Both the position numbers and the translations under genes were made by a program. The notes under the pieces are model-generated. The model saw only the letters and a list, made by a program, of their open reading frames with translations. It ran no database searches and had not been told where the DNA came from. From positions 101,122,001-101,186,000 of the forward strand of contig OX597823.1 in NCBI GenBank assembly GCA_951406725.2: 64,000 nucleotides of DNA. Reading direction: 5' to 3'. Of the stretch, positions 2,193 to 64,000 are shown piece by piece (the first letter of the stretch is position 1; each line of letters opens with the position of its first letter). The stretch is from Octopus vulgaris. Taxonomy: Eukaryota.

Positions 2193-2543
2193 TTACATTT
2201 GTATGATTTTTCTGAGTGTGTTTACTAGGGGAACCTTAGAGAAAAGAATATGGAAGAGTTCAGAATTACAAATGTTACAAAATCTCCTGCCCTTATCAAA
2301 AGGAAAGGATACAGACAGTATGAACCAATCTAACTTGAAAATTATATTGTTGTCTTTAAGACGCCAAACTAATTTACTTAGCCCTGTACTATGTCGTTTT
2401 TTACTATCCCTGAATGTTGAATAGTGGTTTGAAATTCTCTTGGATAACTGGGAAGTGGACGCTCCTATATAGAAGAAGACATCGGTACCGGAAGAAATTC
2501 TACACTGGTAAATAGAATTCTTAATCTTAGAATTACTAGACAA
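2193..2543 (-). pseudogene. PLE GIY-YIG endonuclease fragment
   Basis: SIYQC-x9-YIGAS..R...H, STGLSKLVW, CNICNSE..IL. Confidence 0.8.
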
Positions 2544-4376: not shown

Positions 4377-4606
4377 CTCTGGAGACGTTATCGAGGTATC
4401 TGAGGGGCTTATTCCTGAGGGGTGATTTATGAAATTTAATATTCTTTACGATGTCCCAAAGATCATCTTCGAATTTCTTCAATCTAGGATTAGGTGGAGG
4501 AGTTCCCATCAACTTAAATAGTTTTTTATATTCAAGGGAGATGTCGTTTTAGGTTCTCATTATCGTGGAAGAAGGCGAGCCATCTGATGCGGATGATAAA
4601 TGCATT

Positions 4607-9067: not shown

Positions 9068-9221
9068 TCAAATGTGTGTGTAGGATGTTTTGGCATCGCT
9101 GATGGAACTAGATATAAATTGCGAAGTAGCTATAAACATTTCAGGTCTCACTTCTCTGAATTTTGTTTAATTATGTACATGTATAAGTATGTGTTTATAT
9201 CTATATCTATTTTTCTATCTG

Positions 9222-9335
<114 letters not shown>

Positions 9336-11256
9336 CGTCGCTTCTATAAGTATTGACTCTCGAGCCATTATTGCGGAAGCTGGCAACTCTGAGGGGCATC
9401 CCGCGAGAACTGGGATGCGGGACGAGCGTGTCTGCATACGCGTACGACGTCACCGTCATAGTGTCTAGCCACGAGCACATCGAGCAGGTCGGCGAGACAC
9501 TGAAAAACTACGAAGCGGTGACAGGAGCGAAAATCAACCGGGAAAAGTCAGTGGGCTTGCGACTCGGCACCTGGAGAAGCAAGCCCATGCCGTCCACCAG
9601 CACCTCCGTCGTGGGACGCTGGACCGACGGTCCGGTCGAGTTGCTCGGAGTCTGGTTCGGTCCGGACCTCCAAGTGGAAAAGAACTGGAACGAGATAACG
9701 AGTAGGGTGGTCACTCTCGCCCGGCAATGCGCCGAGAGGAAACTGTCCCTAAGAGGTCGGGCGGAGGTGGCGAACACGTACATCGCGTCCGTCATCTACT
9801 ACTGCCTGACCGTCGTGCCTTGTCCCGATCCTACCATCACCAAACTAGAACGCATTCTCTTCCGCTTCTTGTGGAAAGGATGCGTCCCGATGGTCAGGCG
9901 ATCCATTTGCTGTCAACACCCGTTAAAAGGAGGACTGGGCATGCCGTGGTTGATGATGCGCAGACACGCGCTGAGACTGCGACATCTCAGGCTCTTCGTA
10001 GACGACGGTGATCAGGTATGGTCGCCGTTTGTGGGGCACGCTTTCCCGCAGCTCGTCTCTATGACCGAACTGCAGTCGTGGATCAAAAAGAGGCCGAGGA
10101 AGGGCGAATGGCACCGCGAGTGTCGCGTTGCTCTCAAGCAACTCTGCCGTCTTGGGTCGACCTTGAGTGACTCCATCACAACCAAAGCATTCTATAGGGG
10201 ATTAGAGGAGGGAGGTACGACGACGAGTTCGGGGCGAACCTGGATGATGAGGAATACCTGACTCGCCTGTTCGGGACGACTTTCGGGCCAGGGCTCATGG
10301 ACAACTTCCAGAGATCCCTGGCCTGGCAGTGCTACCGAGAAGCGCTACCCGTTCAGGATAAGCTCTACAGACACGGCTCGAGAAACACGGGGCCGACCTG
10401 CCCGAGATGCGTTCTGAGCGACGAAACCGTTCTGCACGCACTCGTGCAGTGTCCAACAATTTCCGACCTGTGGGCTTATGTCGAACAACTGCTGTCACGT
10501 GTGGGACGAGTCGGTTTATCAGCTGAGTCTATCGTCAATATTGTAACGCCTCCTTCCTTCAAATGGGAAGGAAGAGCTATTTTCATCATCCTTGTGGCTA
10601 TGGCGAAAGAATGTATCTGGTGGACACGTCTGAAAGGATTGGAGACAAACACTTTCCTCTCTGGTCAATCTCTCATCAACTTCTTCAAGTACCACTTGAA
10701 AAGGAAAGTGAGAGTAGAGAGGCAAGTTTTGTCTAGCGAATGTTTAAAAATAAGATGGGTGAATGTAGCAAGGATGGCACGTATGAATAACAAAGCCACC
10801 TTGAGCATAATCCTATGAACCCAGAAATTGAAAACAGAGGGTTACCCACTTGCAAACAAATGTGGTAACATATAACAATATTGACCGAGGTTACCGTGGT
10901 CTTTTTCGTAGGCTTTTCTTCCCACGGATAAGCCTTATCTGCTTCCCCCTTTACACCGTACATCATGACACTGATACACGATCCCTATTGATCGTTTTTT
11001 TCCTCTTCCCCTTTTTTCCTCTTTTTTCTTCTTTCTTCCTTTTTCTTTTCTTTTGTTTCTTTTCCTATTTTTCCTTTTTTTCTTCTTTATTTCTTTTTTT
11101 CCCCTTTTTACGGTCCCTTTTGATCGAAAACCTACGCCACTTTTGTTTTGTTTCTTTTGTTTTTTGTTTTTTGTTTTTTTCATCCCCCAAAAGAAAAGCT
11201 CTACCTTGTAATTTGTTCCATCTGTGTGCAGCCCTGTGTGGCCAATAAAGGAACTT
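9336..11256 (+). mobile_element. 5'-truncated L1/Tx1-clade non-LTR retrotransposon inserted in a (CTAT)n microsatellite
   Basis: ORFs 9353-10261 and 10297-10818: LEPLLRKL, SAYAYDV (degenerate YADD), GAKINREKS, LSLRGRA, GGLG, C-terminal CPRC..ETVLHALVQC; T-rich 3' UTR ending AATAAA; (CTAT)n on both sides. Confidence 0.9.
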
Positions 11257-11303
11257 ATCTATCTATCCATCCATCCATCCATCCATCCATCCATCCATCC
11301 ATC

Positions 11304-11383
<80 letters not shown>

Positions 11384-11388
11384 GTCTG

Positions 11389-11429
<41 letters not shown>

Positions 11430-13059: not shown

Positions 13060-13402
13060 ATAGACATGGCTGTGTGGTTAAGAAGCACAATTTGGGGCTA
13101 CATGGTTCCGGGTTCAGTTCCTTGGGCAAGTGTCTTCCACTATAGCCCCGAGCTGACCAATGCATTGTGAATGAATTTGGAAGACGGAATCTGTGCGGAA
13201 GCCAGTCATGCACAGAAATACATGCACCGATATAGGTTTACATTAATCAAAGTATTCAGTGTTTATCGTTTCATTTCAGCCGAGGTTACCTATCTCTTTC
13301 GTATTGGCTATTAAATAACTAAATATTAGAAAATAGAACGGTTAAGCGATTAATTAATATAATTCAGAGGTGGTAATACACACACACACACACACACACA
13401 CA

Positions 13403-14736: not shown

Positions 14737-16373
<1,637 letters not shown>

Positions 16374-35529: not shown

Positions 35530-36640
35530 GGTTATAGAATAGTCCTTCTGAATGGGATCTGGATGTTACTCCATTCGGACTTTCGGTTGAGAGTAGGTTT
35601 GTATTCTTGTATACAAACTGCTTCTGTGACCTGTCTCAACATTGCATCGGTGGGATGTGTTGATAGGATGTTCAACTTAAGTTTCCCTAAGGATCCTTTG
35701 TGGCAGTCTACAGCATGTTGGTAGAAGATGGAGTTTGGCTTCCTTTCAATGTAGTTGTCCAGGTGTTCTTTGAACCTATCATTGATGCTTCTAGAAGTCT
35801 CACCTATGTATGACTCTGTGTTAGTCGCGCAAGCTCCCTCCTGGCACTTAATCTGGTATACAGTGCCCTTGGTTTTGCCATTTACATGTGGATTTGTCGA
35901 ACATACTGCACAATTACTTTGACAGGTGATTCTATCAAATGAATATGATCTGCATAATGCCGATTTGATAGTCCTACCTGTCTTTTCTACAACTTTAATT
36001 TTTAGGCCCGTAGTGCGCAGGATTTTCTTGAATGCCTTACTTAGCTCGTTCTTAGGTGTGGCGTCAACGAACATTACTCCGTGAAATCTCCTGTTATCGT
36101 ACCAAGTAACGTTTCTCATCCTTTTGTTGGTGTCCCTCTCTAACCTATTCCAGAACTTGTTGCGGTATAGGGGGCATATACCGTTTTCGTCGTTCCTTAG
36201 AATGCGTTCGAATCTAGCTTTCGCTCTTTTGTACACCCTGACTCTATCGTCTTGTGTCTATCCGGAGTGTTGCATTCGGAATATGTAGTGTTGGATGTGT
36301 CGTTGTCGTTCTTGTGGTTGGCATAGTGGTGATACATTCCTCATTACTCTAATTAAGTCTGCCACTAGGATGTTGAGTTTGGCAGTATCCGACATAGCTG
36401 AGTCACTACGGATTACTAGTGGATCAGCCATCGGTTTCTGATAGTGTGAGTGGAGTATACAGGGTTTAATGGTTCCATTAACCATAGCATCTTCCATCCA
36501 TAGCTCAGTATCTAGGACGGGTAATCGTTTACTGGGGTGTTTAGAGGGGTAGTCTATGGTAAATTTTATACTGCTGTGGATAGGGTCAGCTATGTGTTGT
36601 ATAGATGTCATCACCTGTTCTTCACTTGGTAGAGGGCCCA
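35530..36640 (-). mobile_element. Second-family PLE fragment (RT thumb + GIY-YIG) with one in-frame stop
   Basis: SIKFTIDYPS..LPVLDTEL..YQKPM and GTVYQIKC..C..SYIGETSRSINDRFKEH..RQVTEAVCI..PTLN; ORFs 36258-36746 and 35532-36236 are in the same frame, split by TAG. Confidence 0.85.
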
Positions 36641-36894
36641 TAACTGTGTCTGTATTATATTTCACAACAAGGTTAATGGCGATGAAATTTTCTTTATTAT
36701 GATAAATTGATCTAACATAGAATGGGTACATTACAGGAGAAAACAATTACAAAAATGCTATGCGAGTTCGAATGAAATTATAAAAATTACAAAATTAAAA
36801 TTTTATGTAACTTGAACGAAAACTTGGCTTACTTTGCATTGAAACGAAACCTTGGCTTACTTTTGCCTTTATCACGAGAACTTTAGTGCGTATG

Positions 36895-39800
36895 TTTTCT
36901 TTTCTTTTCTTTTTTTTATTATTAAGTCTTTATTTTAAACAGTTATGTACAGTGAAAGGTAATGGGAGGTACCAGTTTCAATTTTGAACCCGGCAGCCTA
37001 TAAACCCCAGCAGCTGATTTTTCCTTTCCTCGATGGTTAAGCTGGGTTACTCTCACCCACCTTTCTCATCACATCCTTCCAACGTTCCATATACTCTTTC
37101 TGTGGAAGGCTCCTCTTCTCCAACCCCATCTTGCTCTTCAGATGATATCCGAAGTATTTTAACAAACCGGGGCCAGAGATAAAGGACCCTTTCACTAGAC
37201 CTTCCACTCTAGTTCTCCATACACACTCTTTCAATACTGCCACCGTACAGTAAAAACAAGCCTTACCTTCATTTGAGAGTCCAGTTAGCGGTATCATCTT
37301 AATCATAGATCCAACCGACAACTGTACTCGTCCCAGATGCGACAACACGTGTTCCACGTAACTTATCAAGCCTGACAGCTCCCGACATTGTACAAAAGCG
37401 TGTTGAACGGTTTCATCGTCCAACCCACATCTTGGACACGTCGGTGGCACTGACATTCCGTGCCTGGATAACTTCTCGCGAACAGGTAATGCATTCCTAT
37501 AGCACTGCCAGGTCAGGGATTTTTGGTAATTATCCAAATACCCCGGCCTGAAAGTCTTCTTAAACAGGTTGGAGAGTTGATCCTCATCGAACCCCAGAGC
37601 CCTTCCTAGGACGTCGTCATTTTTTCCTCCTACCAGCCCTTTATAGAACACCGAGGTGGTATTCCCGCTGCCGGCCTTACCCATCTTGTGGATCAGCCAG
37701 AGTGCCTGTCGGCACTCCTTCTGCCATGAAGTCAGTTTACGTCCTTTAATGAGACCGGGTGTAAATCCCTCCATAGAGGCCGGTCGCGGGAAGAATTCCT
37801 CTGCCAGCGAACTCCACACCTTATCATCCTCCAGGTAACACCAGAGGTGTCTCAGCCTCAACGCATGCTTGCGCATCATTAGCCAAGGCATCCCCAGTCC
37901 ACCCTTTAGCGGTTCCTGGCAACACACGGAGCGGCTCACAGGTGGCTTTCCTCCTTTCCACAAAAAGCGGAAAAGGAGTCGTTCCAACTTGTTTAACCAC
38001 GAATCGGGGCAAGGCACGACGGTCAGGCGGTAGGTGACGACAGAGGCTATAAACATCTGTGCCACCTCCGCCCTCCCTTTCAAGGAAAGATGCCTTCCGG
38101 ACCACTTCCGTACTATGGCATCCACCTTGCTCGTTACCTCGCTCCAATTCTTCTCCGTCTGGGAGTCTGGACCAAACCAGACTCCGAGCAATTTAACAGG
38201 ACCATCCGTCCAGTGTCCAACAACACTGGACGGTATCGGCTTGTTCCTCCAGGTGCCGAGGCGCAAACCGATGGACTTGTCCCTGTTAACTTTTGCCCCT
38301 GCCACCGCTTCGTATCTATGGAGAGCACCTACTACCCGAGGTAGCTGTGTTCCGTTGGACACGATGAGGGTGACGTCATCCGCATAGGCAGAAACAGACT
38401 TACCGCATCCGATTTCATTAGGGTTGCCTCCCAACTTCTCCAGCTTCCGCAGCAATGGCTCAAGAGCCAAAACATACAGGAGCGGGGACAAGGGGCACCC
38501 TTGACGAACTGAACGCTTGATCGAAAACGGCTCCGTTAGGTAACCGTTTATCTGGACTGTGGACTTGATGCCGCTGTACATAGCTGAGATCCACCCGCAG
38601 AAGCCAGGGCCCAGCCCAGCCGCTTCGAGAACCGCCGCCAAGTACCGATGGTCTACCCTATCAAACGCTTTACTTTGGTCTAAATGGACCAATGCCCCTC
38701 CTTTGCCGTCTAATTTCCCGACCCTATCTATAGTGTAGCGGAGAAGGTGAAGATTATCCTGGATCGACCTGCCTGGGATTGCATATGTCTGTGCCTTCCC
38801 GACGAGTTTCCCCACGACAGCCGTCAACCTTTTTGCTAACACCTTGGCAAAATCTTAAACTCTACATTAAGTAGAGTTATGGGCCTGTAATTACTAATAC
38901 TGTCCCCCTTGCTCGGGTCTTTCTGGACCAGCGTCACAACTCCCCGACTCACAGAGCTGGGAATCCTCCCATTCTGTTGCCAGTTTGCATAGACGCTTGC
39001 CAGTATGTCCCCGAACAAGTCCGGCATACAACAATAAAATTCATAGGGTAGACCATCCAATCCCGGTGACTTTTCCCCGGCGCACTCGGCCATAACCCCT
39101 CTTACCTCTGTGGGAGAGATCGATCCTTCACAGCACTCCGCCTCACCTGCCGAGAGCCGAGGCCCACCAGCTAGGAAGTCCTTTAAGGTTTCCCCACGCT
39201 CGAGCGGACCACCACCCCCAAACAGCCGTGCGAAATGCTGGTGAAGGACCTTCTGCATCTCCTCCTGTCCATAGATCTTGCGGTCCTGCTCGTCAGTTAA
39301 GGACATAATACAGGACTTTTTGCCCTTCTGACTCTCCTCACGACGGGCCCATCCGGCAACGTTAATACCTTCTCGTTTTCCTGCACGTAACTTAGCTCTG
39401 ACTCTACACCCCTCGTGCTTGGTGTTGAGGTGACGGTACAATACCGCTCTCGCTGCCAACACTCCGGATGCACAGCCAGATTCCATAGCTTCGTCTAAGT
39501 TCTTAACTAATTCGCCCTCTATTCTAGTCCTATCTAAACGTAGCTGCTTGCTAAATCTAATGGACTCCAAACGGATGGCTCTTTTGAGGGCGAACCACCA
39601 TCTATTATTAATGATGGTGCCACATAATGCTCTCTATACTAATTCCTTAATCCGGGTACGGAAAGCTTCACAGGTCAAAATAGACTTGTTCATCTTCCAG
39701 TACCCGGGACCTTGTCTATGGCATTTATCTACATGTACCTCACACGTTACAAGTTTGTGATCCGTGTAAGGCACAACAGAGAATTGTGGACAGCTAACAC

Positions 39801-39990
39801 TATTCCTATCTCGTTCCTTAACAAATACTCTATCTATGTACGATCTGCGTGAGCCGTCGTTATTACTCCACGTCCACTGTGGAACGTTCGGCTCATCCAG
39901 TCGAAAACGGTCTACTAGATTAAAGCTCGCTAGTAGAGCCTTGAGGCCAGGAGCGATAGGAAGCGATAGGAAGTGGTTAGCCATGATAAG
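36895..39990 (-). mobile_element. 5'-truncated L1/Tx1-clade element (APE C-terminus + RT + CCHC)
   Basis: WTWSN..SYIDRVFV..TDHKLV..GPGYWKMN (APE end); KSPGLDGLPYEFY, NYRPITLLN, DQSKAFDRVDH, SVRQGCPLSPLLY, AYADDV, CPRC..ETVQHAFVQC; AATAAA plus A-rich tail. Confidence 0.92.
37037..38842 (-). pseudogene. Tx1-type ORF2 RT/C-terminal segment, frameshifted from 38836-39570
   Basis: 601-aa open stretch with YADD; clearly homologous to 9353-10818. Confidence 0.9.
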
Positions 39991-50929: not shown

Positions 50930-51131
50930 ATACTCTTTACTCTTTTACTTGTTTCAGTCATTTGACTGCGGCCATGCTGGAGCACCGCCTTTAGTCGAGC
51001 AAATCGACCCCGGGACTTATTCTTTGTAAGCCCAGTACTTATTCTATCGGTCTCTTTTGCCGAACCGCTAAGTGACGGGGACGTAAACACACCAGCATCG
51101 GTTGTCAAGCAATGCTAGGGGGACAAAAACA

Positions 51132-51187
<56 letters not shown>

Positions 51188-51336
51188 CATATATACGACA
51201 GGCTTCTTTCAGTTTCCGTCTACCAAATCCACTCACAAGGCATTGGTCGGCCCGGGGCTATAGCAGAAGACACTTGCCCAAGATGCCAAGCAGTGGGACT
51301 GAACCCGGAACCATGTGGCTGGTTAGCAAGCTACTT
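50930..51336 (-). mobile_element. Well-preserved tRNA-derived SINE whose head is interrupted between the A and B boxes by the ORF1-only array
   Basis: Minus strand AAGTAGCTTGCTAACCAGCCACATGGTTCCGGGTTCAGTCCCACTG...GGGCAAGTGTCTTCTGCTATAGCCCCGG...(TA)(TG)n...GAAACAAGTAAAAGAGTAAAGAGTA; the A-box part seen in copies at 13060 and 26941 is absent. Confidence 0.85.
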
Positions 51337-53567
51337 TATTTCAAAACATTTGCCATAAAGGCAGTACACAGATTAAGTTAGCTTTGCGGGCTGGACGAGG
51401 ACATTAATGAGGTGAATGATAATGAAAGAAGGATGATAAGGATGGGAGAAGACAAAAAGCGCCCGCCGACTTTTGCTTCTCTAAAACATTGTTCTTTTTA
51501 AGGATAAACACAAAACGAGGTATTAAACCTCTTACAATTTTTCTAATTTTTGGACTTAGCAGTCCATTATTAATATAAAACGAGGTATTAATCCTCTTAC
51601 AATTTTTCAATTTTTGGACTTAAGTCCATTACTAATAATACATATCGTCCTCGAAATAGCTTGTGCCCGCGCCCTCCACCATCAACCACGCCTCCCTCAG
51701 AACGTAATCAAGTTCCGAGTTCGCGTCGCCCGGGACCAAGTTATAATCTTCATTGAGCTCCTTTAGCCCAAGCGTCACGTCGAACGCCACGGCCTCCACA
51801 GCTACCTGTGGAGGCCATTCGGGGTCCTGTGTGAAGGCTAAAGGTGCTCCCTTGTAGTGCTCTTCCATCACTTTTTCAATTTCTCCTCCTCTATAGAAGA
51901 GGACCAATACGTTCAGTTCTTTCGTTGGCGGCACAGTTCCCGCCAACGGTATTCCTTCTCTTGTCGGTGGCACAACCCCAACCGACGTAGTTCCGGGACA
52001 TTCCGGTGCTACACTGACAGCCGGTAATGTCCCGTTTTTCTTCCTCTTTTTCTTTTTTTCCCTTTTCAACTGAGGGAGGGTGCGTCTCCTCCGTGGCTGG
52101 AAGATTCGCCTTCCTCTCCTCATCCCTATTATCCTTTGGTGAGCACCCATTGTTGCTCACCTTCCTCTTTCGGCCTCTGTTTGAGGAGTCCTCTGCTTTC
52201 TCGGCCGTTATCGTTCCCTCTTCTAGAGGGGTTTTACTTAACTGATCCGGGATCCTATTTTGTTCCCGAGGACAGTTCTTCTTTATGTGGCCGGACTCCA
52301 AGCACCGATGACACTTAGGGGGGGGGCGACCCTCAAGCATCACCGGGTACCTGCACCCGGCCATTTTCAAAAAATCTGGAAGAACCAGATTGGCTGATTG
52401 GGTCCACAGGGTCAAAATTGCTTTTGACCCAACCCAAGCAGCCGCAGGAAGAACTTTTACATTGAGGAGCTTAGTTTCGCTGTCACCCAGACCCCGGCGG
52501 ATAGTCTCCTCTATCCACTCGGGTTCTATGTCGGGTGGCAATCCGCAGATCCAAGCTTTCATCAATTTCTTTTTTTTGTACGTGGGCAGGAATAAGATTT
52601 CCTTACCCTCCAGGAGTTTGCTAGCAAATTTGCAAGCCTCTTCAGGGGTGTCAAATAGCAACCACACCGTTGCATATTTGACACCCCTGGAAATGAATTT
52701 AATTGTTGGCAAATACTCTTCCAACTCCTCCTCAATTGCCGTCTTTTCGAATAGGGCGATGGTGTCGAGTGCCTTGGAGTAGGTTCTCAACACCACCGTC
52801 CTATCTTCACGGTCTTTTAACCACTTTTTAGGTGGTATGATTTCCCACTCCAAAATTTTGTTATTTTTCATTGCCATGTTTTTTTTTAAATATATTCAAA
52901 TTAAACTCAAAAAGCAGGAAGAAAAAAGTTCAAAAGTCCAAATAAAATTTGATAGATTTTTGAAAAAACAAAAAAGGAGAAAGCACAACAGAAGGGAAGA
53001 AATCAACGGAAAGTCGCAATAAAGAAAAAAAACAAAAGGGGGGGTTAAGTGAAGTTCAAAAGAAAGTTAATAAACAGAAAAAACACAGCAAAAATATTCT
53101 GGCCTTGCGGTACTCCCGGCCTGGGTTGAACCTGGAACGCCGCAACTGCAACACAACCTCCACAAAAATGGGTCCGAAAGGTAATCCAATAGTGGCTTAT
53201 TTTTATAATTTTCTTGCGAAGTAGTAGTTTTCACAATTCATAAAAGTTCTTCACAGCACAATACAATTCTCACAATTACGTGAGAAAACTATTTACTCAA
53301 TTTATCGAGGACAGATACGCCCCCCCCCAAATTTTCTCAGCGAGAAAAATATATTTGCCACATGTCGGCAGAATCAGAATTCTGAATCCAGTAGGACTTC
53401 CTGCCTGTAAAAAACAATTCTCAACAAAAACTCCCACTGGACCCAGAAAACAGAATCTTACCTTACATGGGGCTTCCAAAGTTTTCAATTTAAGACGGCT
53501 TCAATAGCACGTCTTCACCGCTTCAGTGCCAAACACAACACTGACTCGCACATGCGCAGAAGCAACC
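51335..53567 (-). mobile_element. ORF1-only element, unit A1 (divergent family-A variant, ~2.2 kb)
   Basis: Bounded by GTTAGCAAGCTAC at 51322-51334 and 53568-53580; ends in AATAAA; homologous leader and ORF to A2-A6. Confidence 0.85.
51632..52877 (-). pseudogene. L1/Tx1 ORF1-like protein (RRM-like + CCHC), one frameshift in the purine run near 52050
   Basis: KFISRGVKYATVWLLFDTPEEA, AWICGLPP, PVMLEGRPPPKCHRCLESGHIKKNCP; C-terminus in the 51632-52150 frame aligns with A2 (VSV..VG.VPP..L.Y..G.E.E..WPPQVA.E). Confidence 0.8.
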
Positions 53568-53580
53568 GTTAGCAAGCTAC

Positions 53581-55571
53581 TTTATTTTATATAATTTGCC
53601 ACTAGGGCAGCACACAGAGTAGTAGCTACGGGCTGGACAAGGACATTAATGGATGATGGTGGTGGTGGATGAAGATGGTGATGGGAGAAGTCGAAAGCGC
53701 CCGCCGACTTTCGCTTCTCTAAAACAATGTTTCAATAAATACATTTAATAAAATGTTCACAATGATTTAAATTACATAAAAATGTTCAACAATTCTTCTC
53801 GTCAGGTCCCCGAAGCAAATTGTCTTGCCGCCTGCAGACAACTCTGCGACGACAAGTCGGGGCCTGCAAAGAGAAAAGTAAAGTCTTTCTTTTCAAAGGT
53901 CTCTGCGACCCTTGACAAAGTATCTTCTGTTACTTTTTCCGCAGCTACCCGCGGAGGCCATAACGGACTCCTTGAGCCGACCGTGCCCTTACGTTCTCGG
54001 TCACCCAAGCCATTCAAGAATCTTTCCACCTCCTCTCCCTTGTGGTAAAGGAGGAGAAGCATCTCCTCTTCACAGGGAGGGACCTCACACTGCTCCGTCA
54101 GTGGCACGCTTCCTACTGGCGGAGCCTTGTCCGCGGGTGGCACACATCCCACCCGCGGCTCCGTCGGCGACACAGAAACGTCAGTCGTCCGACCTCTCCT
54201 TTTATTCCTCCTCCTTTTGGGGGAGACTGCTGACCCAGGGGACTCCGTCACCAGACACGGGGGATTGCTATCCCCCTTCGCCCCCTGAGCGTTCTTTGGC
54301 GGGCAACCATTGTTGCTCGCCTTTCTCTTTCTTTTCGTGGAGGCAACCTCCTCCACGACTTCCATCGTCTCCCCCTCCAATGAGGGGGCGGCGGGCGCCT
54401 TTTCCCCTCTCTGCTCCGGGGCACCACCACGGCCCCTGGGACAATTCTTCCTGATATGTCCGGGCTTCAGGCACAGGTGACACTTGGGGGGGCGACCCTC
54501 GAGTATCACCGGGTACCTGTGCCCAGCCATTCTCAGGAAGTCCGGGAATTTCATTTCCCCCACGGCTACCGGTGTCCACAGGATCAAAGTTGCCCTCGAC
54601 CCCTGCCAGGCGACCGCGGGAGCCACCTTCACACTCAGCAGTCTGGGTCCGCTATCCCCCAGGCCTCGCCGGATGGTCTTCTCGATCCATTCCGCCTCCG
54701 TGCCCGGGGGCAGCCCACACACCCAGGCTCTTTTCACTTTTCTGCCACAATACGAGGGGAGGAACAAAATTTCATCTCCCTCCAGTGGCTCGCTAGCAAA
54801 TCTGCTAGCTTCCTCGGGGGTACCAAACAGCAACCAGACCGTTGCAAATTTAGTCCCCCGAGAAATAAATTTTATAGTTGGCAGGTATTCCCCCAACTCT
54901 TTCTCTATAGTATTCCTGTCGAAGAGGGCAATGACTCCACGCGACCTAGAATAGGTTCGTAGGACCACCGTCCTCTTCTCAAGACTTTCAATCCACTGCT
55001 TGGGTGGGACGACCTCCCATTCCAAAGCGGTGGTTTCTTTTGTTGCCGTGTTTTTTTTGTTTTTTTTTAAATAAATGTATTTAGAATAAAACTAAAAAAC
55101 GAGAAGAAAAGGAAATCCGAAGAAAGTCACAATGAAAAAAGGAGAGAGTCAAATAAAGTTGAAAAGAAAGTCAAATAAAGTTAAAAAGAAAGTCAAAAAC
55201 ACAGCAAAATCCTTTTGGCCATTTGGTACTCCCGGCCTAAATCGAACCAGGATCGCACAACTTCCACAAAAATTGGTGTAAAATTGGTAGTTCTTCACAG
55301 CACCATACAATTTTCACAATTCGAAGACGGATACGCCCCCAAAAACTTTCTCAGCGAGAAAAATATATCTGCCACATGTCGGCAGAATCAGAATTCTGAA
55401 TCCAGTAGGACTTCCTGCATGTAAAATATAATTCTCAACAAAAACTCCCACTGGACCCAGAAAACAGAATCTTACCTTACATGGGGCTTCCAAAGTTTCA
55501 ATTCAAGACGGCTTCAATAGCACATCTTCACTGCTTCAGTAGCAAACACAACACTGACTCGCACATGCGCA
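53581..55571 (-). mobile_element. ORF1-only element, unit A2 (~1.99 kb)
   Basis: Bounded by the junction motif at 53568-53580 and 55572-55584. Confidence 0.9.
53802..55049 (-). CDS. ORF1-like nucleic-acid-binding protein; open frame, but start codon reads ACG (ATG in sister units)
   Basis: CHLCLKPGHIRKNC (CX2CX4HX4C); basic KRKRK and PKRRRNKRR stretches. Confidence 0.75.
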   Translation of the reverse strand, partial: TATKETTALEWEVVPPKQWIESLEKRTVVLRTYSRSRGVIALFDRNTIEKELGEYLPTIKFISRGTKFATVWLLFGTPEEASRFASEPLEGDEILFLPSYCGRKVKRAWVCGLPPGTEAEWIEKTIRRGLGDSGPRLLSVKVAPAVAWQGSRATLILWTPVAVGEMKFPDFLRMAGHRYPVILEGRPPKCHLCLKPGHIRKNCPRGRGGAPEQRGEKAPAAPSLEGETMEVVEEVASTKRKRKASNNGCPPKNAQGAKGDSNPPCLVTESPGSAVSPKRRRNKRRGRTTDVSVSPTEPRVGCVPPADKAPPVGSVPLTEQCEVPPCEEEMLLLLYHKGEEVERFLNGLGDRERKGTVGSRSPLWPPRVAAEKVTEDTLSRVAETFEKKDFTFLFAGPDLSSQSCLQAARQFASGT

Positions 55572-55584
55572 GTTAGCAAGCTAC

Positions 55585-57092
55585 TTTATTTCAACTATTT
55601 TGCCATAAAGGCATTACATAGAGGGGACACTACAAAAACATGTGGGGACATATAACAATTAAAAATAAAATGGTACTGTGAGTGACATGAAAATGAACGT
55701 GAGAAAATAAATTAAGTTTATGATAACATGCATGATATCTGAAAATGAAATATGAAATATGACGAGTGTGCTACTCACCCCACTTTGAGCAACACCACTC
55801 GCTGCCTTTGAGTCTGAATTCTTCTCTAATCTCTGGTCTAGTCCTTCTTTTTCCATTCTCGCTATCACTTAAAGACAACTTTCTTTCGCAACCTTTTTCA
55901 CCGGGGGAGGGGTTTTCTGAATTCTGTGGTGTCTGCTCTTTTTTCTTTTTCTTTTTTTCTTGTGGGGAATGGGAGTGGGTGGGTCTGGTGTCTGTATGGG
56001 GCGGGTGGGTCTGAGTGGTCTTGGGTGGGATGGAGTTGGACTGGGGTACCATTTCACACTCAGTGTTCTTTCTTTTCTTCCTCTTCTTACTTCTGCTCTC
56101 TGCTACTATCCATTCTACCTCCTTTCGTCCGTCTTTGTCTTCGTCCTCTTTTTTCTTCTTTGTCTCCGCAACTGGTTCATCTATTTTTTCCTCTTTTTCT
56201 TCTGTAGGGAGCAGTGTGCTCTTTTTCTTCTGTAGGGGGCAGTGTGCTCTAATGTGGCCTTTTTGGCCACATTTAAAGCACCGCGGGGTTCTGCCTTCTA
56301 CCCATACTCTCAGTACCATTTCTCCCACTGACACCGTTTCCGCCAAATTTTCCAGCTCCTTCGCCTCCGCTTGTATGGTCATTTCCAGTAGTTTTCCTTT
56401 GTAACTTCTTTCCTCTGTCTCTGTGGCTTGGAGGACAGTCACCTCCTCACTTCCAACGAGGACGGCTGCCGCAACCCAAGCCACCTTTATGTCAGGTGGA
56501 ATTCCTTCTACCCTCACCTTAGAATTTTTTCTTCCAAGATAAGAGGGTAGAAGCACCAGTTCCTCAGCTTTTACGGTTGCACTTGCCAGCCTTCTCGCCT
56601 CCTCCTCTGTTTTAAACTGGACAACCACCGTCCCATATCCGCTTCCGTTTGCTATGTATGTTACTTCGTTCGAAAGCCCCTTGAGAGCTTTTTCTATTTT
56701 TTCCATATTCATCTGCTCCACTCTCCTACTCTCCACTGAGTGCACCTTGTAGGTGATGGTTTTTCTTTCCATATTCACCATGACCGTTTTCGGGGGTAGT
56801 AACTTTACGTCACTTCCCACCTTCTGTGTCATCTTATACAGCTCCTTCAGTTCAGTCAGGTCCACTTCCTTTCTCTTCACTCCCGCCGCGTCAGCAAAAC
56901 TCTTAATTTTCTCCAAATGTTGGTCCATCCTGTTCACCGCCTTAACGAGCTCCTCCTCAGATGTGGACAGCTCGTACTCGCTAAGGTCCGAATACATTAT
57001 TTTCCACTCGCCAACAAACCACTGGCGAGCAGCTCAAAGGATTCTGTCCGCCTAGTCAAAACTTGACACAGTAAACAACTCGACGCATGCGC
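55585..57092 (-). mobile_element. ORF1-only element, unit B (distinct family, ~1.5 kb)
   Basis: Bounded by junction motifs 55572-55584 and 57093-57106; body not visibly similar to A in nucleotide sequence but shares terminal motifs. Confidence 0.85.
55771..56997 (-). CDS. Intact 408-aa ORF1-like protein (helical N-terminus, RRM-like, CCHC, Lys/Glu-rich tail)
   Basis: YGTVVVQFKTEEEARR, LLPSYLGRK..VRVEGIPPDI, VWVEGRTPRCFKCGQKGHIRAHCP; motifs colinear with family A. Confidence 0.85.
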   Translation of the reverse strand: MYSDLSEYELSTSEEELVKAVNRMDQHLEKIKSFADAAGVKRKEVDLTELKELYKMTQKVGSDVKLLPPKTVMVNMERKTITYKVHSVESRRVEQMNMEKIEKALKGLSNEVTYIANGSGYGTVVVQFKTEEEARRLASATVKAEELVLLPSYLGRKNSKVRVEGIPPDIKVAWVAAAVLVGSEEVTVLQATETEERSYKGKLLEMTIQAEAKELENLAETVSVGEMVLRVWVEGRTPRCFKCGQKGHIRAHCPLQKKKSTLLPTEEKEEKIDEPVAETKKKKEDEDKDGRKEVEWIVAESRSKKRKKRKNTECEMVPQSNSIPPKTTQTHPPHTDTRPTHSHSPQEKKKKKKEQTPQNSENPSPGEKGCERKLSLSDSENGKRRTRPEIREEFRLKGSEWCCSKWGE

Positions 57093-57106
57093 GTTAGCAA
57101 AGCTAC

Positions 57107-59091
57107 TTTATTTTAAATAATTTGCCACTAGGGCAGCACACAGAGTAGTAGCTACGGGCTGGACAAGGACATTAATGGATGATGGTGGTGGTTGATGAAG
57201 ATGGTGATGGGAGAAGTCGAAAGCGCCCGCCGACTTTTGCTTCTCTAAAACAATGTTTCAATAAATACATTTAATAAACAATGATTCAAATTACATAAAA
57301 ATGTTCAACAATTCTTCTCGTCAGGTCCCCGAAGCAAATTGTCTTGCCGCCTGCAGACAACTCTGCGACGACAAGTCGGGGCCTGCAAAGAGAAAGGTAA
57401 AGTCTTTCTTTTCAAAGGTCTCTGCGACCCTTGACAAAGTATCTTCCGTTACTTTTTCCGCAGCTACCTGCGGAGGCCATAACGGACTCCTTGAGTCGAC
57501 CGTGTCCTTACGCTCTCGGTCACCCAAGCCATTCAAGAATCTTTCAACCTCCTCTCCCTTGTGGTAAAGGAGGAGAAGCATCTCCTCTTCACAGGGAGGG
57601 ACCTCACACTGCTCCGTCGGTGGCACACTTCCCACTGGCGGAGCCTTGTCCGCAGGTGGCACACATCCCACCCGCGGCTCCGTCGGCGACACAGAAACGT
57701 CAGTCGTCCGACCTCTTCTTTTCTCCTCCTTCTTTTGGGGGAGACTGCTGACCCAGGGGACTCCGTCACCAGACACGGGGGATTGCTATCCCCCTTCGCC
57801 CCCTGAGCGTTCTTTGGCGGGCAACCATTGTTGCTCGCCTTTCTCTTTCTTTTCGTGGAGGCAACCTCCTCCACGACTTCCATCGTCTCCCCCTCCAATG
57901 AGGGGGCGGCGGGCGCCTTTTCCCCTCTCTGCTCCGGGGCACCACTACGGCCCCTGGGACAATTCTTCCTGATATGTCCGGGCTTCAGGCACAGGTGACA
58001 CTTGGGGTGGCGACCCTCGAGTATCACCGGGTACCTGTGCCCAGCCATTCTCAGGAAGTCCGGGAATTTCATTTGCCCCACGGCTACCGGTGTCCACAGG
58101 GTCAAGGTTGCCCTCGACCCCTGCCAGGCGACCGCGGGAGCCACCTTCACACTTAGCAGTCTGGGTCCGCTATCCCCCAGGCCTCGCCGGATGGTCTTTT
58201 CGATCCATTCCGCCTCCGTGCCCGGGGGCAGCCCACACACCCAGGCTCTTTTCACTTTTCTGCCACAATACGAGGGGAGGAACAAAATTTCCTCTCCCTC
58301 CAGTGGCTCGCTAGCAAATCTGCTAGCTTCCTCGGGGGTACCAAATAGCAACCAGACCGTTGCAAATTTGCTCCCCGAGAAATAAATTTTATAGTTGGCA
58401 GGTAGTCCCCCAACTCTTTCTCTATAGTATTCTTGTCGAAGAGGGCAATGGCTCCACGCGACCTAGAATAGGTTCGTAGGACCACCGTCCTCTTCTCAAG
58501 ACTTTCAATCCACCGCTTTGGTGGGACGACCTCCCATTCCAAAGCGGTGGTTTCTTTTGTTGCCATGTTTTTTTTTGTTTTTTTTTTTAAATAAATGTAT
58601 TTAGAATAAAACTAAAAAACGAGAAGAAAAGGAAATCCGAAGAATGTCACAATGAAAAACGGAGAGAGTCAAATAAAGTTGAAAAGAAAGTCAAATAAAG
58701 TTAAAAAGAAAGTCAAAAACACAGCAAAATCCTTTTGGCCATTTGGTACTCCCGGCCTAAATCGAACCAGGATCGCACAGCTTCCACAAAAATTGGTGTA
58801 AAATTGGTAGTTCTTCACAGCACCATACAATTTTCACAATTCGAAGACGGATACGCCCCCCAAAATTTTCTCAGCGAGAAAAATATATCTGCCACATGTC
58901 GGCAGAATCAGAATTCTGAATCCAGTAGGACTTCCTGCATGTAAAAAATAATTCTCAACAAAAACTCCCACTGGACCCAGAAAACAGAATCTTACCTTCC
59001 ATGGGGCTTCCAAAGTTTCAATTCAAGACGGCTTCAAAAGCACATCTTCACTGCTTCAGTAGCAAACACAACACTGACTCGCACATGCGCA
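57107..59091 (-). mobile_element. ORF1-only element, unit A3 (ORF 57321-58566 with two homopolymer frameshifts)
   Basis: Junction motifs GTTAGCAAAGCTAC at 57093 and 59092; near-identical to A5. Confidence 0.9.
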
Positions 59092-59105
59092 GTTAGCAAA
59101 GCTAC

Positions 59106-61089
59106 TTTATTTTAAATAATTTGCCACTAGGGCAGCACACAGAGTAGTAGCTACGGGCTGGACAAGGACATTAATGGATGATGGTGGTGGTTGATGAAGA
59201 TGGTGATGGGAGAAGTCGAAAGCGCCCGCCGACTTTTGCTTCTCTAAAACAATGTTTCAATAAATACATTTAATAAACAATGATTCAAATTGCATAAAAA
59301 TGTTCAACAATTCTTCTCGTCAGGTCCCCGAAGCAAATTGTCTTGCCGCCTGCAGACAACTCTGCGACGACAAGTCGGGGCCTGCAAAGAGAAAGGTAAA
59401 GTCTTTCTTTTCAAAGGTCTCTGCGACCCTTGACAAAGTATCTTCTGTTACTTTCTCCGCAGCTACCTGCGGAGGCCATAACGGACTCCTTGAGCCGACC
59501 GTGTCCTTACGCTCTCGGTCACCCAAGCCAGTCAAGAATCTTTCAACCTTCTCTCCCTTGTGGTAAAGGAGGAGAAGCATCTCCTCTTCACAGGGAGGGA
59601 CCTCACACTCCTCCGTCGGTGGCACACTTCCCACTGGCGGAGCCTTGTCCGCGGGTGGCACACATCCCACCCGCGGCTCCGTCGGCGACACAGAAACGTC
59701 AGTCGTCCGACCTCTCCTTTTTCTCCTCCTTCTTTTGGGGGAGACTGCTGACCCAGGGGACTCCGTCACCAGACACGGGGGATTGCTATCCCCCTTCGCC
59801 CCCTGAGCGTTCTTTGGCGGGCAACCATTGTTGCTCGCCTTTCTTTCTTTTCGTGGAGGCAACCTCCTCCACGACTTCCATCGTCTCCCCCTCCAATGAG
59901 GGGGCGGCGGGCGCCTTTTCCCCTCTCTGCTCCGGGGCACCACTACGGCCCCTGGGACAATTCTTCCTGATATGTCCGGGCTTCAGGCACAGGTGACACT
60001 TGGGGGGGCGACCCTCGAGTATCACCGGGTACCTGTGCCCAGCCATTCTCAGGAAGTCCGGGAATTTCATTTGCCCCACGGCTACCGGTGTCCACAGGGT
60101 CAAGGTTGCCCTCGACCCCTGCCAGGCGACCGCGGGAGCCACCTTCACACTTAGCAGTCTGGGTCCGCTATCCCCCAGGCCTCGCCGGATGGTCTTTTCG
60201 ATCCATTCCGCCTCCGTGCCCGGGGGCAGCCCACACACCCAGGCTCTTTTCACTTTTCTGCCACAATACGAGGGGAGGAACAAAATTTCCTCTCCCTCCA
60301 GTGGCTCGCTAGCAAATCTGCTAGCTTCCTCGGGGGTACCAAACAGCAACCAGACCGTTGCAAATTTGCTCCCCGAGAAATAAATTTTATAGTTGGCAGG
60401 TAGTCCCCCAACTCTTTCTCTATAGTATTCTTGTCGAAGAGGGCAATGGCTCCACGCGACCTAGAATAGGTTCGTAGGACCACCGTCCTCTTCTCAAGAC
60501 TTTCAATCCACCGCTTTGGTGGGACGACCTCCCATTCCAAAGCGGTGGTTTCTTTTGTTGCCATGTTTTTTTTTGTTTTTTTTTTTAAATAAATGTATTT
60601 AGAATAAAACTAAAAAACGAGAAGAAAAGGAAATCCGAAGAATGTCACAATGAAAAACGGAGAGAGTCAAATAAAGTTGAAAAGAAAGTCAAATAAAGTT
60701 AAAAAGAAAGTCAAAAACACAGCAAAATCCTTTTGGCCATTTGGTACTCCCGGCCTAAATCGAACCAGGATCGCACAGCTTCCACAAAAATTGGTGTAAA
60801 ATTGGTAGTTCTTCACAGCACCATACAATTTTCACAATTCGAAGACGGATACGCCCCCCAAAATTTTCTCAGCGAGAAAAATATATCTGCCACATGTCGG
60901 CAGAATCAGAATTCTGAATCCAGTAGGACTTCCTGCATGTAAAAAATAATTCTCAACAAAAACTCCCACTGGACCCAGAAAACAGAATCTTACCTTCCAT
61001 GGGGCTTCCAAAGTTTCAATTCAAGACGGCTTCAAAAGCACATCTTCACTGCTTCAGTAGCAAACACAACACTGACTCGCACATGCGCA
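59106..61089 (-). mobile_element. ORF1-only element, unit A4 (ORF 59320-60564, frameshifted)
   Basis: Junction motifs at 59092 and 61090. Confidence 0.9.
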
Positions 61090-61103
61090 GTTAGCAAAGC
61101 TAC

Positions 61104-63088
61104 TTTATTTTATATAATTTGCCACTAGGGCAGCACACAGAGTAGTAGCTACGGGCTGGACAAGGACATTAATGGATGATGGTGGTGGTGGATGAAGATG
61201 GTGATGGGAGAAGTCGAAAGCGCCCGCCGACTTTTGCTTCTCTAAAACAACGTTTCAATAAATACATTTAATAAACAATGATTCAAATTACATAAAAATG
61301 TTCAACAATTCTTCTCGTCAGGTCCCCGAAGCAAATTGTCTTGCCGCCTGCAGACAACTCTGCGACGACAAGTCGGGGCCTGCAAAGAGAAAGGTAAAGT
61401 CTTTCTTTTCAAAGGTCTCTGCGACCCTTGACAAAGTATCTTCCGTTACTTTTTCCGCAGCTACCTGCGGAGGCCATAACGGACTCCTTGAGTCGACCGT
61501 GTCCTTACGCTCTCGGTCACCCAAGCCATTCAAGAATCTTTCAACCTCCTCTCCCTTGTGGTAAAGGAGGAGAAGCATCTCCTCTTCACAGGGAGGGACC
61601 TCACACTGCTCCGTCGGTGGCACACTTCCCACTGGCGGAGCCTTGTCCGCGGGTGGCACACATCCCACCCGCGGCTCCATCGGCGACACAGAAACGTCAG
61701 TCGTCCGACCTCTTCTTTTTCTCCTCCTTCTTTTGGGGGAGACTGCTGACCCAGGGGACTCCGTCACCAGACACGGGGGATTGCTATCCCCCTTCGCCCC
61801 CTGAGCGTTCTTTGGCGGGCAACCATTGTTGCTCGCCTTTCTCTTTCTTTTCGTGGAGGCAACCTCCTCCACGACTTCCATCGTCTCCCCCTCCAATGAG
61901 GGGGCGGCGGGCGCCTTTTCCCCTCTCTGCTCCGGGGCACCACTGCGGCCCCTGGGACAATTCTTCCTGATATGTCCGGGCTTCAGGCACAGGTGACACT
62001 TGGGGGGGCGACCCTCGAGTATCACCGGGTACCTGTGCCCAGCCATTCTCAGGAAGTCCGGGAATTTCATTTGCCCCACGGCTACCGGTGTCCACAGGGT
62101 CAAGGTTGCCCTCGACCCCTGCCAGACCGCGGGAGCCACCTTCACACTTAGCAGTCTGGGTCCGCTATCCCCCAGGCCTCGCCGGATGGTCTTTTCGATC
62201 CATTCCGCCTCCGTGCCCGGGGGCAGCCCACACACCCAGGCTCTTTTCACTTTTCTGCCACAATACGAGGGGAGGAACAAAATTTCCTCTCCCTCCAGTG
62301 GCTCGCTAGCAAATCTGCTAGCTTCCTCGGGGGTACCAAACAGCAACCAGACCGTTGCAAATTTGCTCCCCCGAGAAATAAATTTTATAGTTGGCAGGTA
62401 GTCCCCCAACTCTTTCTCTATAGTATTCTTGTCGAAGAGGGCAATGGCTCCACGCGACCTAGAATAGGTTCGTAGGACCACCGTCCTCTTCTCAAGACTT
62501 TCAATCCACTGCTTTGGTGGGACGACCTCCCATTCCAAAGCGGTGGTTTCTTTTGTTGCCATGTTTTTTTTTTTTTTTTTTTTTTTAAATAAATGTATTT
62601 AGAATAAAACTAAAAAACGAGAAGAAAAGGAAATCCGAAGAATGTCACAATGAAAAACGGAGAGAGTCAAATAAAGTTGAAAAGAAAGTCAAATAAAGTT
62701 AAAAAGAAAGTCAAAAACACAGCAAAATCCTTTTGGCCATTTGGTACTCCCGGCCTAAATCGAACCAGGATCGCACAGCTTCCACAAAAATTGGTGTAAA
62801 ATTGGTAGTTCTTCACAGCACCATACAATTTTCACAATTCGAAGACGGATACGCCCCCCAAAATTTTCTCAGCGAGAAAATATATCTGCCACATGTCGGC
62901 AGAATCAGAATTCTGAATCCAGTAGGACTTCCTGCATGTAAAAAATAATTCTCAACAAAAACTCCCACTGGACCCAGAAAACAGAATCTTACCTTACATG
63001 GGGCTTCCAAAGTTTCAATTCAAGACGGCTTCAAAAGCACATCTTCACTGCTTCAGTAGCAAACACAACACTGACTCGCACATGCGCA
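61104..63088 (-). mobile_element. ORF1-only element, unit A5 (intact)
   Basis: Junction motifs at 61090 and 63089. Confidence 0.9.
61318..62562 (-). CDS. Intact 414-aa ORF1-like protein (RRM-like x2 + CCHC knuckle + basic region + C-terminal domain)
   Basis: ATG preceded by an A-run; CHLCLKPGHIRKNC; no RT or endonuclease ORF follows before AATAAA ~210 nt downstream. Confidence 0.85.
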   Translation of the reverse strand: MATKETTALEWEVVPPKQWIESLEKRTVVLRTYSRSRGAIALFDKNTIEKELGDYLPTIKFISRGSKFATVWLLFGTPEEASRFASEPLEGEEILFLPSYCGRKVKRAWVCGLPPGTEAEWIEKTIRRGLGDSGPRLLSVKVAPAVWQGSRATLTLWTPVAVGQMKFPDFLRMAGHRYPVILEGRPPKCHLCLKPGHIRKNCPRGRSGAPEQRGEKAPAAPSLEGETMEVVEEVASTKRKRKASNNGCPPKNAQGAKGDSNPPCLVTESPGSAVSPKRRRRKRRGRTTDVSVSPMEPRVGCVPPADKAPPVGSVPPTEQCEVPPCEEEMLLLLYHKGEEVERFLNGLGDRERKDTVDSRSPLWPPQVAAEKVTEDTLSRVAETFEKKDFTFLFAGPDLSSQSCLQAARQFASGT

Positions 63089-63102
63089 GTTAGCAAAGCT
63101 AC

Positions 63103-64000
63103 TTTATTTTAAATAATTTGCCACTAGGGCAGCACACAGAGTAGTAGCTACGGGCTGGACAAGGACATTAATGGATGATGGTGGTGGTTGATGAAGATGG
63201 TGATGGGAGAAGTCGAAAGCGCCCGCCGACTTTTGCTTCTCTAAAACAATGTTTCAATAAATTTCCTCTCCCTCCAGTGGCTCGCTAGCAAATCTGCTAG
63301 CTTCCTCGGGGGTACCAAACAGCAACCAGACCGTTGCAAATTTGCTCCCCCGAGAAATAAATTTTATAGTTGGCAGGTAGTCCCCCAACTCTTTCTCTAT
63401 AGTATTCTTGTCGAAGAGGGCAATGGCTCCACGCGACCTAGAATAGGTTCGTAGGACCACCGTCCTCTTCTCAAGACTTTCAATCCACTGCTTTGGTGGG
63501 ACGACCTCCCATTCCAAAGCGGTGGTTTCTTTTGTTGCCATGTTTTTTTTTTGTTTTTTTTTTTAAATAAATGTATTTAGAATAAAACTAAAAAACGAGA
63601 AGAAAAGGAAATCCGAAGAATGTCACAATGAAAAACGGAGAGAGTCAAATAAAGTTGAAAAGAAAGTCAAATAAAGTTAAAAAGAAAGTCAAAAACACAG
63701 CAAAATCCTTTTGGCCATTTGGTACTCCCGGCCTAAATCGAACCAGGATCGCACAACTTCCACAAAAATTGGTGTAAAATTGGTAGTTCTTCACAGCACC
63801 ATACAATTTTCACAATTCGAAGACGGATACGCCCCCAAAATTTTCTCAGCGAGAAAATATATCTGCCACATGTCGGCAGAATCAGAATTCTGAATCCAGT
63901 AGGACTTCCTGCATGTAAAAAATAATTCTCAACAAAAACTCCCACTGGACCCAGAAAACAGAATCTTACCTTACATGGGGCTTCCAAAGTTTCAATTCAA
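63103..64000 (-). mobile_element. ORF1-only element, unit A6, with ~1020 bp internal deletion; runs off the window
   Basis: 3' UTR joined to ORF codon ~94 at AAAT (63259-63262). Confidence 0.85.

Follow-up and report, generated by a model that had tools for sequence, protein, structure and literature searches.

Long interspersed element (LINE) tails carrying a stem-loop shared by partner elements are a long-known concept. In PMC4176376, the LINEs ZfL2-1, ZfL2-2 and UnaL2 read the stem generically and the loop specifically ("TX1" there denotes mutant names, not a clade), and PMC3472496 describes a 3' stem-loop shared by a monocot L1 and the short interspersed elements (SINEs) ZmSINE2/3. Whether the L1 group had stringent 3' recognition first and relaxed to poly(A) later is debated (PMC3472496, PMC3747384). 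The Tx1 families are target-specific, some for microsatellites and others for transposons: according to PMC4494074, Tx1-Mar has SINEU passengers, Kibi and Koshi reside in microsatellites, tandem passengers sandwich a duplication (16 nt in SINEU-3), and SINEU passengers are paired to their helpers by target, SINEU-1 sharing no 3' tail with known LINEs. LINE derivatives that retain only the first open reading frame (ORF1) include HAL1 (from L1), HeT-A (Jockey) and Ag-Sponge (CR1 clade; PMC5786205, PMC5753468). Here we describe a tandem array of ORF1-only units in 64,000 nt of Octopus vulgaris DNA (assembly GCA_951406725.2, contig OX597823.1, positions 101,122,001 to 101,186,000 of the forward strand; hereafter the window), each unit ending in TCTRTGT, a short predicted hairpin and AATAAAG. 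Sequence comparison suggests, with a probability of roughly 0.55, that this motif is an inherited 3' recognition signal of the Tx1 lineage, kept by the units for the ORF2 protein (ORF2p) acting in trans.

Terminal motif of the seven array units

The array occupies the minus strand from position 51335 to the window end and consists of seven head-to-tail units, A1, A2, B, A3, A4, A5 and A6, in AT-rich, microsatellite-rich animal DNA. On that strand, positions 53620-53581 in A2 read ACTCTGTGTGC-TGCC-CTAGT-GGCA-AATTATATAA-AATAAA, and the complete A2 end (53574..53618) comprises TCTGTGT (53618-53612), the hairpin TGCC-CTAGT-GGCA (53609-53597), AATAAA (53586-53581) and GTAGCTT (53580-53574). The corresponding end of A1 lies at 51328..51372 (hairpin 51363-51351, loop TTTAT), that of B at 55578..55622 (TCTATGT, hairpin 55613-55601, loop TTTAT) and that of A3 at 57100..57144, with near-identical copies in A4 (59099-59143), A5 (61097-61141) and A6 (63096-63140). 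TGCC-N5-GGCA occurs at seven places in the 64 kb, all of them ends of array units and each 15 nt upstream of the terminal AATAAA. The loop is CTAGT in A2-A6 and TTTAT in A1 and B; it is CTGTGT in Tx1a and CAATTT behind Tx1b, two Tx1-type copies elsewhere in the window that are described below. Since A2-A5 are near-identical (A3-A5 99.2-99.5% among themselves, A2 97.8-97.9% to A3-A5), the seven ends amount to three lineages (A1, the A2 type and B) with two loop variants. A1, A2 and B agree in 25 of their last 38 columns; the 8 stem positions are all among these, and the loop contributes 2 of its 5. Outside the motif, the DNA of B matches that of A in purine runs only and otherwise shows no useful similarity, and the B ORF1 is 28% identical to that of A2, which argues that the terminal conservation between A and B is real and local.

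The conserved unit exceeds the hairpin and comprises TCTRTGT, the hairpin and AATAAAG-N-A-N-N-TT. All five sites compared (A1, A2, B, Tx1a and the distal motif behind Tx1b) read G-N-A-N-N-T-T after AATAAA, and TCTRTGT is separated from AATAAA by 32 nt in all seven units and by 23 nt in both Tx1-type ends. An earlier note on this DNA quoted the ends of A2-A6, A1 and B, all of which are present as described, and took the hairpin to be the signal. The hairpin does lie within the motif, but its standing as the whole signal is not supported, because the TCTRTGT and AATAAAG flanks are at least as conserved. Likewise, the description of an invariant stem around a variable 5-nt loop fits A and B but not Tx1a, where A.C replaces the outer U-A pair and the loop is 6 nt long. 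Rfam gave 152 matches to the window (E up to 1), nearly all to microsatellites; among the 150 listed, none overlaps a terminal motif and none reaches a gathering score.

The main rival explanation is that the motif serves mainly as an RNA polymerase II 3'-end processing signal (AAUAAA, an upstream U/GU-rich stretch, a UGUA-like element and a small hairpin) that sets the RNA end just inside the duplicated target, with a reverse transcriptase (RT) of the relaxed type for which this tail, matching the target, would be enough; we regard it as rather unlikely. In its favour, AATAAA is invariant and TCTRTGT stands at fixed spacing from it, and tandem units need an internal end signal. UGUA plays a role in polyadenylation, and TGTAAT occurs at the same offset in both Tx1-type ends, but TGTA is not invariant and is missing from the A2 motif. 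The SINEU-1 passengers, which have no tail in common with known Tx1 elements (PMC4494074), also fit a processing role. However, poly(A) was found neither at any of the seven junctions nor at Tx1a, and conservation of GCC/GGC between families with 28% ORF1 identity would not be needed for host processing.

A longer hairpin in the 3' untranslated region (UTR), GAGAAG...CTTCTC, lies at 53685..53719 (-) in A2 and 51446-51481 (-) in A1, with equivalents in A3-A6 (-16.7 kcal/mol in A2, -12.6 in A1, -10.7 in A3 and A5). It is strongly conserved between A1 and A2 without two-sided changes, is absent from B and Tx1a, and survives in A6, in which mid-ORF1 is fused straight to the 3' UTR (63255-63265, minus strand) with the loss of about 1.1 kb and retention of the terminal motif. 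This hairpin could be a family-A-specific signal.

ORF1-only units and their insertion site

Complete units are 1.5-2.2 kb long, and all lie on the minus strand. A1 (51335..53567) has an ORF1 frame at 51891-52895, 52% identical to that of A2, and a second frame at 51632-52156. A2 (53581..55571) has ORF1 at 53802-55091, with ACG in place of the ATG of the other copies, and B (55585..57092) has ORF1 at 55771-57033, predicted to encode RRM-RRM-CCHC. A3 to A6 fill 57107..64000; the ORF1 of A5 (61318-62562) is open, and A6, besides its internal deletion, is sliced off by the window end. A1 is a mosaic (53288-53567, minus strand), 85-97% identical to A2 in the first 200 nt and about 60% thereafter, and its terminal 20 nt are nearest B.

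Out of 5860 candidates, the A2 ORF1 matched just one, a protein of Octopus sinensis (61% identity across 67% of the query), and a longer relative comes from O. bimaculoides. An ORF1 model predicted from an 82-sequence alignment (predicted local distance difference test score, pLDDT, 94.9) contains two RRM-like domains followed by a CCHC knuckle, and tandem-RRM proteins head its Foldseek list; in a further structural comparison the best Z was 9.3 (root-mean-square deviation 2.8, 82 aligned). A single-sequence fold was discarded (pLDDT 42.8). Pfam matches to zf-CCHC, with E from 5e-4 to 0.03, and to RRM_3, with E 0.013, are all too weak for the Pfam cut-offs, and an Atlas search gave leads below 0.9 only. 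RRM/zf-CCHC combinations in ORF1 proteins (ORF1p) fit the Tx1 clade according to PMC5203782. When 120 RT relatives of Tx1b were searched, ORF1-core profiles matched non-RT parts of long fused ORF1-ORF2 gene models, five with a window-only profile (best E 5.8e-12) and eight with an expanded one. No ORF1-ORF2 fusion close to A or B was present in three longer matches or in the best 150 of 819 representatives, which gave distant fusions only. A tblastn search with six full-length ORF2 relatives (E up to 1) revealed no ORF2 remnant in the array and nothing past 40 kb. The RRM-RRM-CCHC architecture, the profile matches to fused models and the lack of an ORF2 remnant together support the descent of A and B, as ORF1-only derivatives, from a Tx1-type lineage.

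The units are separated by a short repeat, AAGTAGCTTGCTAAC, on the minus strand at 53568..53582, 51336-51322 and 55586-55572, and with one extra T at the four upstream junctions (57108-57093, 59107-59092, 61105-61090 and 63104-63089). All seven junctions read AATAAAGTAGCTT(T)GCTAAC, with 15-16 nt in common. From the last junction the sequence continues into the 3' remainder of a tRNA-like SINE (50948..51336, minus strand) with a B-box-like GGTTCAGTCC, the insertion target. A relative of this SINE near 13064-13210 (+) is uninterrupted and runs ungapped across the junction position, leaving the SINE register unbroken. The junction repeat is likely to be a target-site duplication, about 15 nt long and so close to the 16 nt of SINEU-3 (PMC4494074). 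It lies in a SINE head and not in an intact tRNA gene, because ARAGORN found no tRNA genes in the window. The extra T could have come about by a single mutation followed by stepwise insertion on the 5' side, or by duplication of A3-A6 at the DNA level, and these units could be such duplications rather than separate insertions. With regard to retrotransposition as such, at many independent loci, the window offers a single locus, where three lineages show defined ends and the junction is repeated.

Three further features of the units and their target were observed. GCGCATG, no more than about 10 nt from the junction, is common to the 5' ends of A and B (about 53557-53551, 55570-55564 and 57093-57086, minus strand), and we take it to resemble an NRF1 site. 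In the family-A 5' UTR (55480-55060, minus strand, and copies), AAG/GTAAG resembles a splice donor and a long pyrimidine tract precedes the ORF1 start, so that a retained intron is possible. The tail of the target SINE contains a hairpin, CAGTC-AAAT-GACTG (50975-50950, minus strand), with partial copies near 13700 and 46955, a candidate for a separate, classic SINE 3' stem-loop.

Tx1-type ends, folding and choice of helper

Two Tx1-type ORF2 copies lie outside the array. Tx1a (9336..11255, plus strand) is 5'-truncated and contains the C-terminal RT half, zf-RVT and a 430-nt 3' UTR; it sits between (TATC)n arrays (9216-9335 and 11256-11426) of about 30 or more TATC-type units each, a single instance of this setting. 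Although it was previously taken for an ORF2-coding Tx1 and its sequence is indeed of Tx1-type ORF2, the copy is truncated and decayed: its 5' edge carries an in-frame stop, the frame shifts near 10200, and YAYD replaces the YADD of its relative. Tx1b (36686..39948, minus strand) is 5'-truncated and frameshifted, with a partial endonuclease, RT and zf-RVT, and no target-site duplication was found at it. Pfam identifies RVT_1 and zf-RVT in the copies and PF03372, PF00078 and PF13966 in full-length relatives. The two RTs are mutually closest among 45 proteins compared (66% over 238 aa, the next 51%), and among solved proteins human L1 ORF2p is their best match (E 1e-30), followed by R2. One match is titled "Transposon TX1 putative 149 kDa" (29% identity), and the RT tree comprised 44 rows without an outgroup from other clades or named Tx1 reference families.

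The Tx1a end (11221..11256, plus strand) consists of TCTGTGT, GCC-CTGTGT-GGC (11231-11242), AATAAA (11244-11249) and GGAACTT, followed by (TATC)n; positions 11221-11249 read TCTGTGTGCA-GCC-CTGTGT-GGC-C-AATAAA, with a stem of three pairs and a 6-nt loop. Its similarity to the units was scored with AATAAA itself excluded, against 129 control AATAAA sites and 5000 dinucleotide shuffles. Against A2, it matches in 22 of 26 columns and ranks first of 129 (score 27, next 18, mean 10.1), and 6 of 5000 shuffles score as high. The match to A1 is weak (tied first, 42 of 5000), and that to B is at chance (rank 38 of 129, 3174 of 5000). Among 3416 sliding windows over 1-51300, the Tx1a end is the best for A2, but not for A1 or B, and past the last 30 nt its 3' UTR shares only T-rich chance matches with A or B. 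The striking similarity to family A claimed earlier is therefore beyond chance for A2, weak for A1 and does not extend to B. A 3' tail shared between coding element and passenger was accordingly found for A2 and A1 and not for B, while the motif architecture is common to all.

One explanation of this match would make the Tx1a family the helper of A and B, mobilising them by way of the common hairpin. Its end is the best 3'-end match to A2 in the window, and its GGAACTT after AATAAA resembles GTAGCTT, so that pairing of the RNA with the primer could steer passengers to different sites. However, Tx1a lies in (TATC)n, whereas all seven A/B junctions lie in the SINE head, and Tx1 targets are family-specific, a shared target being the pairing criterion (PMC4494074). 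In addition, the loop and the outer pair differ, B is unmatched, and a similar motif occurs behind Tx1b, so Tx1a is not singled out. Tx1a as helper is consequently improbable; since the target differs and pairing follows shared targets, its family appears to be a relative.

The motif behind Tx1b (36686..36721, minus strand) lies about 340 nt behind the ORF2 stop and consists of TCTATGT, GAT-CAATTT-ATC (36712-36701), AATAAA (36698-36693) and GAAAATT; it may be the end of Tx1b or of a short tandem fragment. Outside the array, TCTRTGT occurs 30 times. Of the 89 AATAAA sites there, two have it within 45 nt on their upstream side, and each of these lies behind a Tx1-type ORF2. The Tx1a and distal Tx1b ends are identical at 22 of 47 ungapped positions (rank 1 of 88). 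GAT-N6-ATC in place of GCC-N6-GGC represents two double-sided changes, with a 1-nt slip, and is the only covariation observed. A more proximal AATAAA behind Tx1b (36929) has neither TCTRTGT nor GCC/GGC and shares TTTAAAATAAAG with A3, A4 and A6; it was rejected as a negative control, being the top non-training match of a covariance model (E 0.24) and a possible Tx1b end. Penelope-like remnants with GIY-YIG frames occur at 2193-4445 (-) and 35532-36746 (-), the second of which starts directly after the distal motif; the frame that follows this motif has no Pfam match, and we presume it to be of Penelope type from a motif and the adjoining GIY-YIG frame.

The hairpin in isolation has a predicted energy of -3.1 to -5.7 kcal/mol. 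In the 60 nt ending at AATAAA, its predicted pair probability is 0.00 in A2 and A3, 0.84 in A1, 1.00 in B and 0.40 in Tx1a. Inclusion of 8 more downstream nt raises that of A2 to 0.68-0.91 in 40-100 nt windows, because a predicted closing helix (53575..53627, minus strand) pairs the bases following AATAAA (GTAGCT, 53580-53575) with an arm upstream of the motif (AGCTAC, 53627-53622). Tx1a has an analogous helix (GTTCC 11215-11219 with GGAAC 11250-11254), A1 a bulged one and B none. A perfect arm of at least 5 bp was found at 2 of 88 control sites. The helix was found post hoc, and its register relative to TCT (+1, -2, -4, -5) is not conserved, so that it is a lead only. Its interpretation as true covariation was rejected, since 4-9% of shuffled upstream windows hold an arm and B lacks it, and so was a guide-RNA role of the arm, which in Tx1a complements GGAAC and not the (TATC)n target. 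RNAalifold applied to five family-A 3' UTRs gave no two-sided change in 35 pairs and no terminal hairpin in the consensus structure.

Because the folding energy is marginal and the stem is constant throughout A and B, the motif might instead be read as sequence, or might have been spread by recent 3'-end exchange among co-inserting families, the hairpin being incidental. In agreement with exchange, A1 is a mosaic and shares a 20-nt stretch with B at 95%, although its ORF1 is nearer that of A2. On the other hand, 3 of 5 loop positions vary as against 0 of 8 stem positions, the Tx1b motif retains three pairs with altered letters, and a match to a Tx1 element at a different target is hard to explain by exchange. 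These arguments make an incidental hairpin improbable.

Recruitment of a Tx1-type RT through a cis-acting terminal signal, as proposed earlier, remains the best reading, but without the family at 11.2 kb as partner, whose target is different. A number of observations weigh against it. To the chance-level match of B can be added that covariation of the stem, which the earlier note had put forward as a check, is absent from the seven distinct rows of A, B and Tx1a (0 of 4 pairs with two-sided changes), so that this alignment favours neither structure nor sequence. The change in the Tx1b stem is suggestive but weak evidence of covariation, because a 3-bp stem in that register is frequent by chance (9.3% of random positions and 3 of 30 TCTRTGT sites), and the covariance model built from A, B and Tx1a gave no significant hit to the proximal (E 0.24) or the distal (E 2.6) Tx1b site. 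The A2 hairpin vanishes from predictions in long windows (at most 0.08 at 150-300 nt), and the folding z-scores of the five terminal domains (-2.1, -1.1, -0.6, -0.2 and -0.9) are mostly unremarkable. At the DNA level, the 5' junction of the array lies outside the window, and the uninterrupted SINE agrees with the junction repeat in 6 of 7 nt from AAG and again 13 nt later, with divergence between. No SINE-targeting, ORF2-coding Tx1 was observed in the window. Finally, the loops differ, whereas the stringent LINEs that have been tested read the loop (PMC4176376), and SINEU-1, without a shared tail, implies that some Tx1 RTs may be relaxed.

If the motif is an inherited recognition signal, A and B would derive from autonomous Tx1 elements that lost ORF2 and kept both ends. 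The unit RNA would be coated by its own ORF1p, and its terminal domain would be bound by a helper ORF2p whose endonuclease nicks the site in the SINE head; the last RNA bases, which match the target exactly from AAG to the end, would pair with the nicked strand. Every insertion would regenerate the site, so that copies stack. The helper is probably another Tx1 family, absent from the window, with specificity for the SINE head, and the family flanked by (TATC)n would share the signal by descent. For Octopus vulgaris, PMC13282606 lists 80 consensus families of L1/Tx1.

Two other RT elements were noted in the window. The C-terminal part of one with a restriction-like endonuclease motif lies between (TAA)n arrays at 14848-16340 (+) and is presumably of R4/Dong type, and a heavily decayed remnant of another clade at 19500-21500 (-), with weak tblastn matches, is assumed to be RTE.

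Comparison with known systems

No account of a 3' stem-loop in Tx1, of an ORF1-only family derived from Tx1 or of this SINE target turned up in searches of the literature, which covered neither most subscription papers nor Repbase. It is conceivable, though doubtful, that Octopus has at least two divergent ORF1-only families derived from Tx1 that insert specifically into a tRNA-like SINE head, and that a single terminal RNA domain of conserved structure (TCTRTGT, the hairpin, AAUAAAG and a helix that closes it on the final bases matching the target) serves to recruit the RT stringently throughout the Tx1 lineage. Tx1 would then have its first described stringent 3' signal, in which, in contrast to the L2 model, the stem is generic and the loop is tolerated. 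Tx1 is a target-specific branch of the L1 group, so its 3' signal bears on the debate about the order of stringent and relaxed recognition. Tx1 would also join the clades that spawn ORF1-only elements, here a site-specific element parasitising a SINE head, and a motif of about 40 nt in ORF1-only passengers and coding families offers a small, mutable test object.

HeT-A stacks head-to-tail, resembling the A/B array. A and B are like HAL1, HeT-A and Ag-Sponge in having a 5' region, one ORF1, a LINE-type 3' end, no ORF2 and a presumed helper. They differ in that their ORF1 is of Tx1 type (RRM-RRM-CCHC), from a source outside that list, and in that they are specific for a SINE head and have no poly(A) tail.

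As in the stringent LINEs (ZfL2-1, ZfL2-2 and UnaL2, and the L1 with ZmSINE2/3), a short terminal stem-loop precedes the tail and is common to coding and non-autonomous elements. The analogy that had been drawn with them breaks down in detail: those LINEs have a conserved, specific loop on an exchangeable stem that varies in a compensated way, whereas A, B and Tx1a keep the same stem letters around loops that differ between A2, A1/B and Tx1a. Moreover, the predicted stem here has only 3-4 bp and belongs to another clade. Neither Tx1a nor Tx1b has the loop of the units that a cognate coding element would share. Since the four loops differ, a stringent-loop model excludes both as cognate while still allowing an unseen family; if loops are read stringently here, the four loops predict either different cognate RTs or a tolerant reader.

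The closest parallel in target use is with Tx1-Mar and its SINEU passengers, which share with A and B a fixed site in another repeat, a duplication of about 15 nt and tandem copies around it, and Tx1a resembles the microsatellite-targeting Kibi and Koshi. However, A and B are passengers with an ORF1 and with a 3' motif in common with Tx1 ends, whereas the tail of SINEU-1 is unlike known LINEs, and the targets differ from those of Tx1-Mar, Kibi and Koshi, being the head of a tRNA-like SINE for A and B and (TATC)n for Tx1a.

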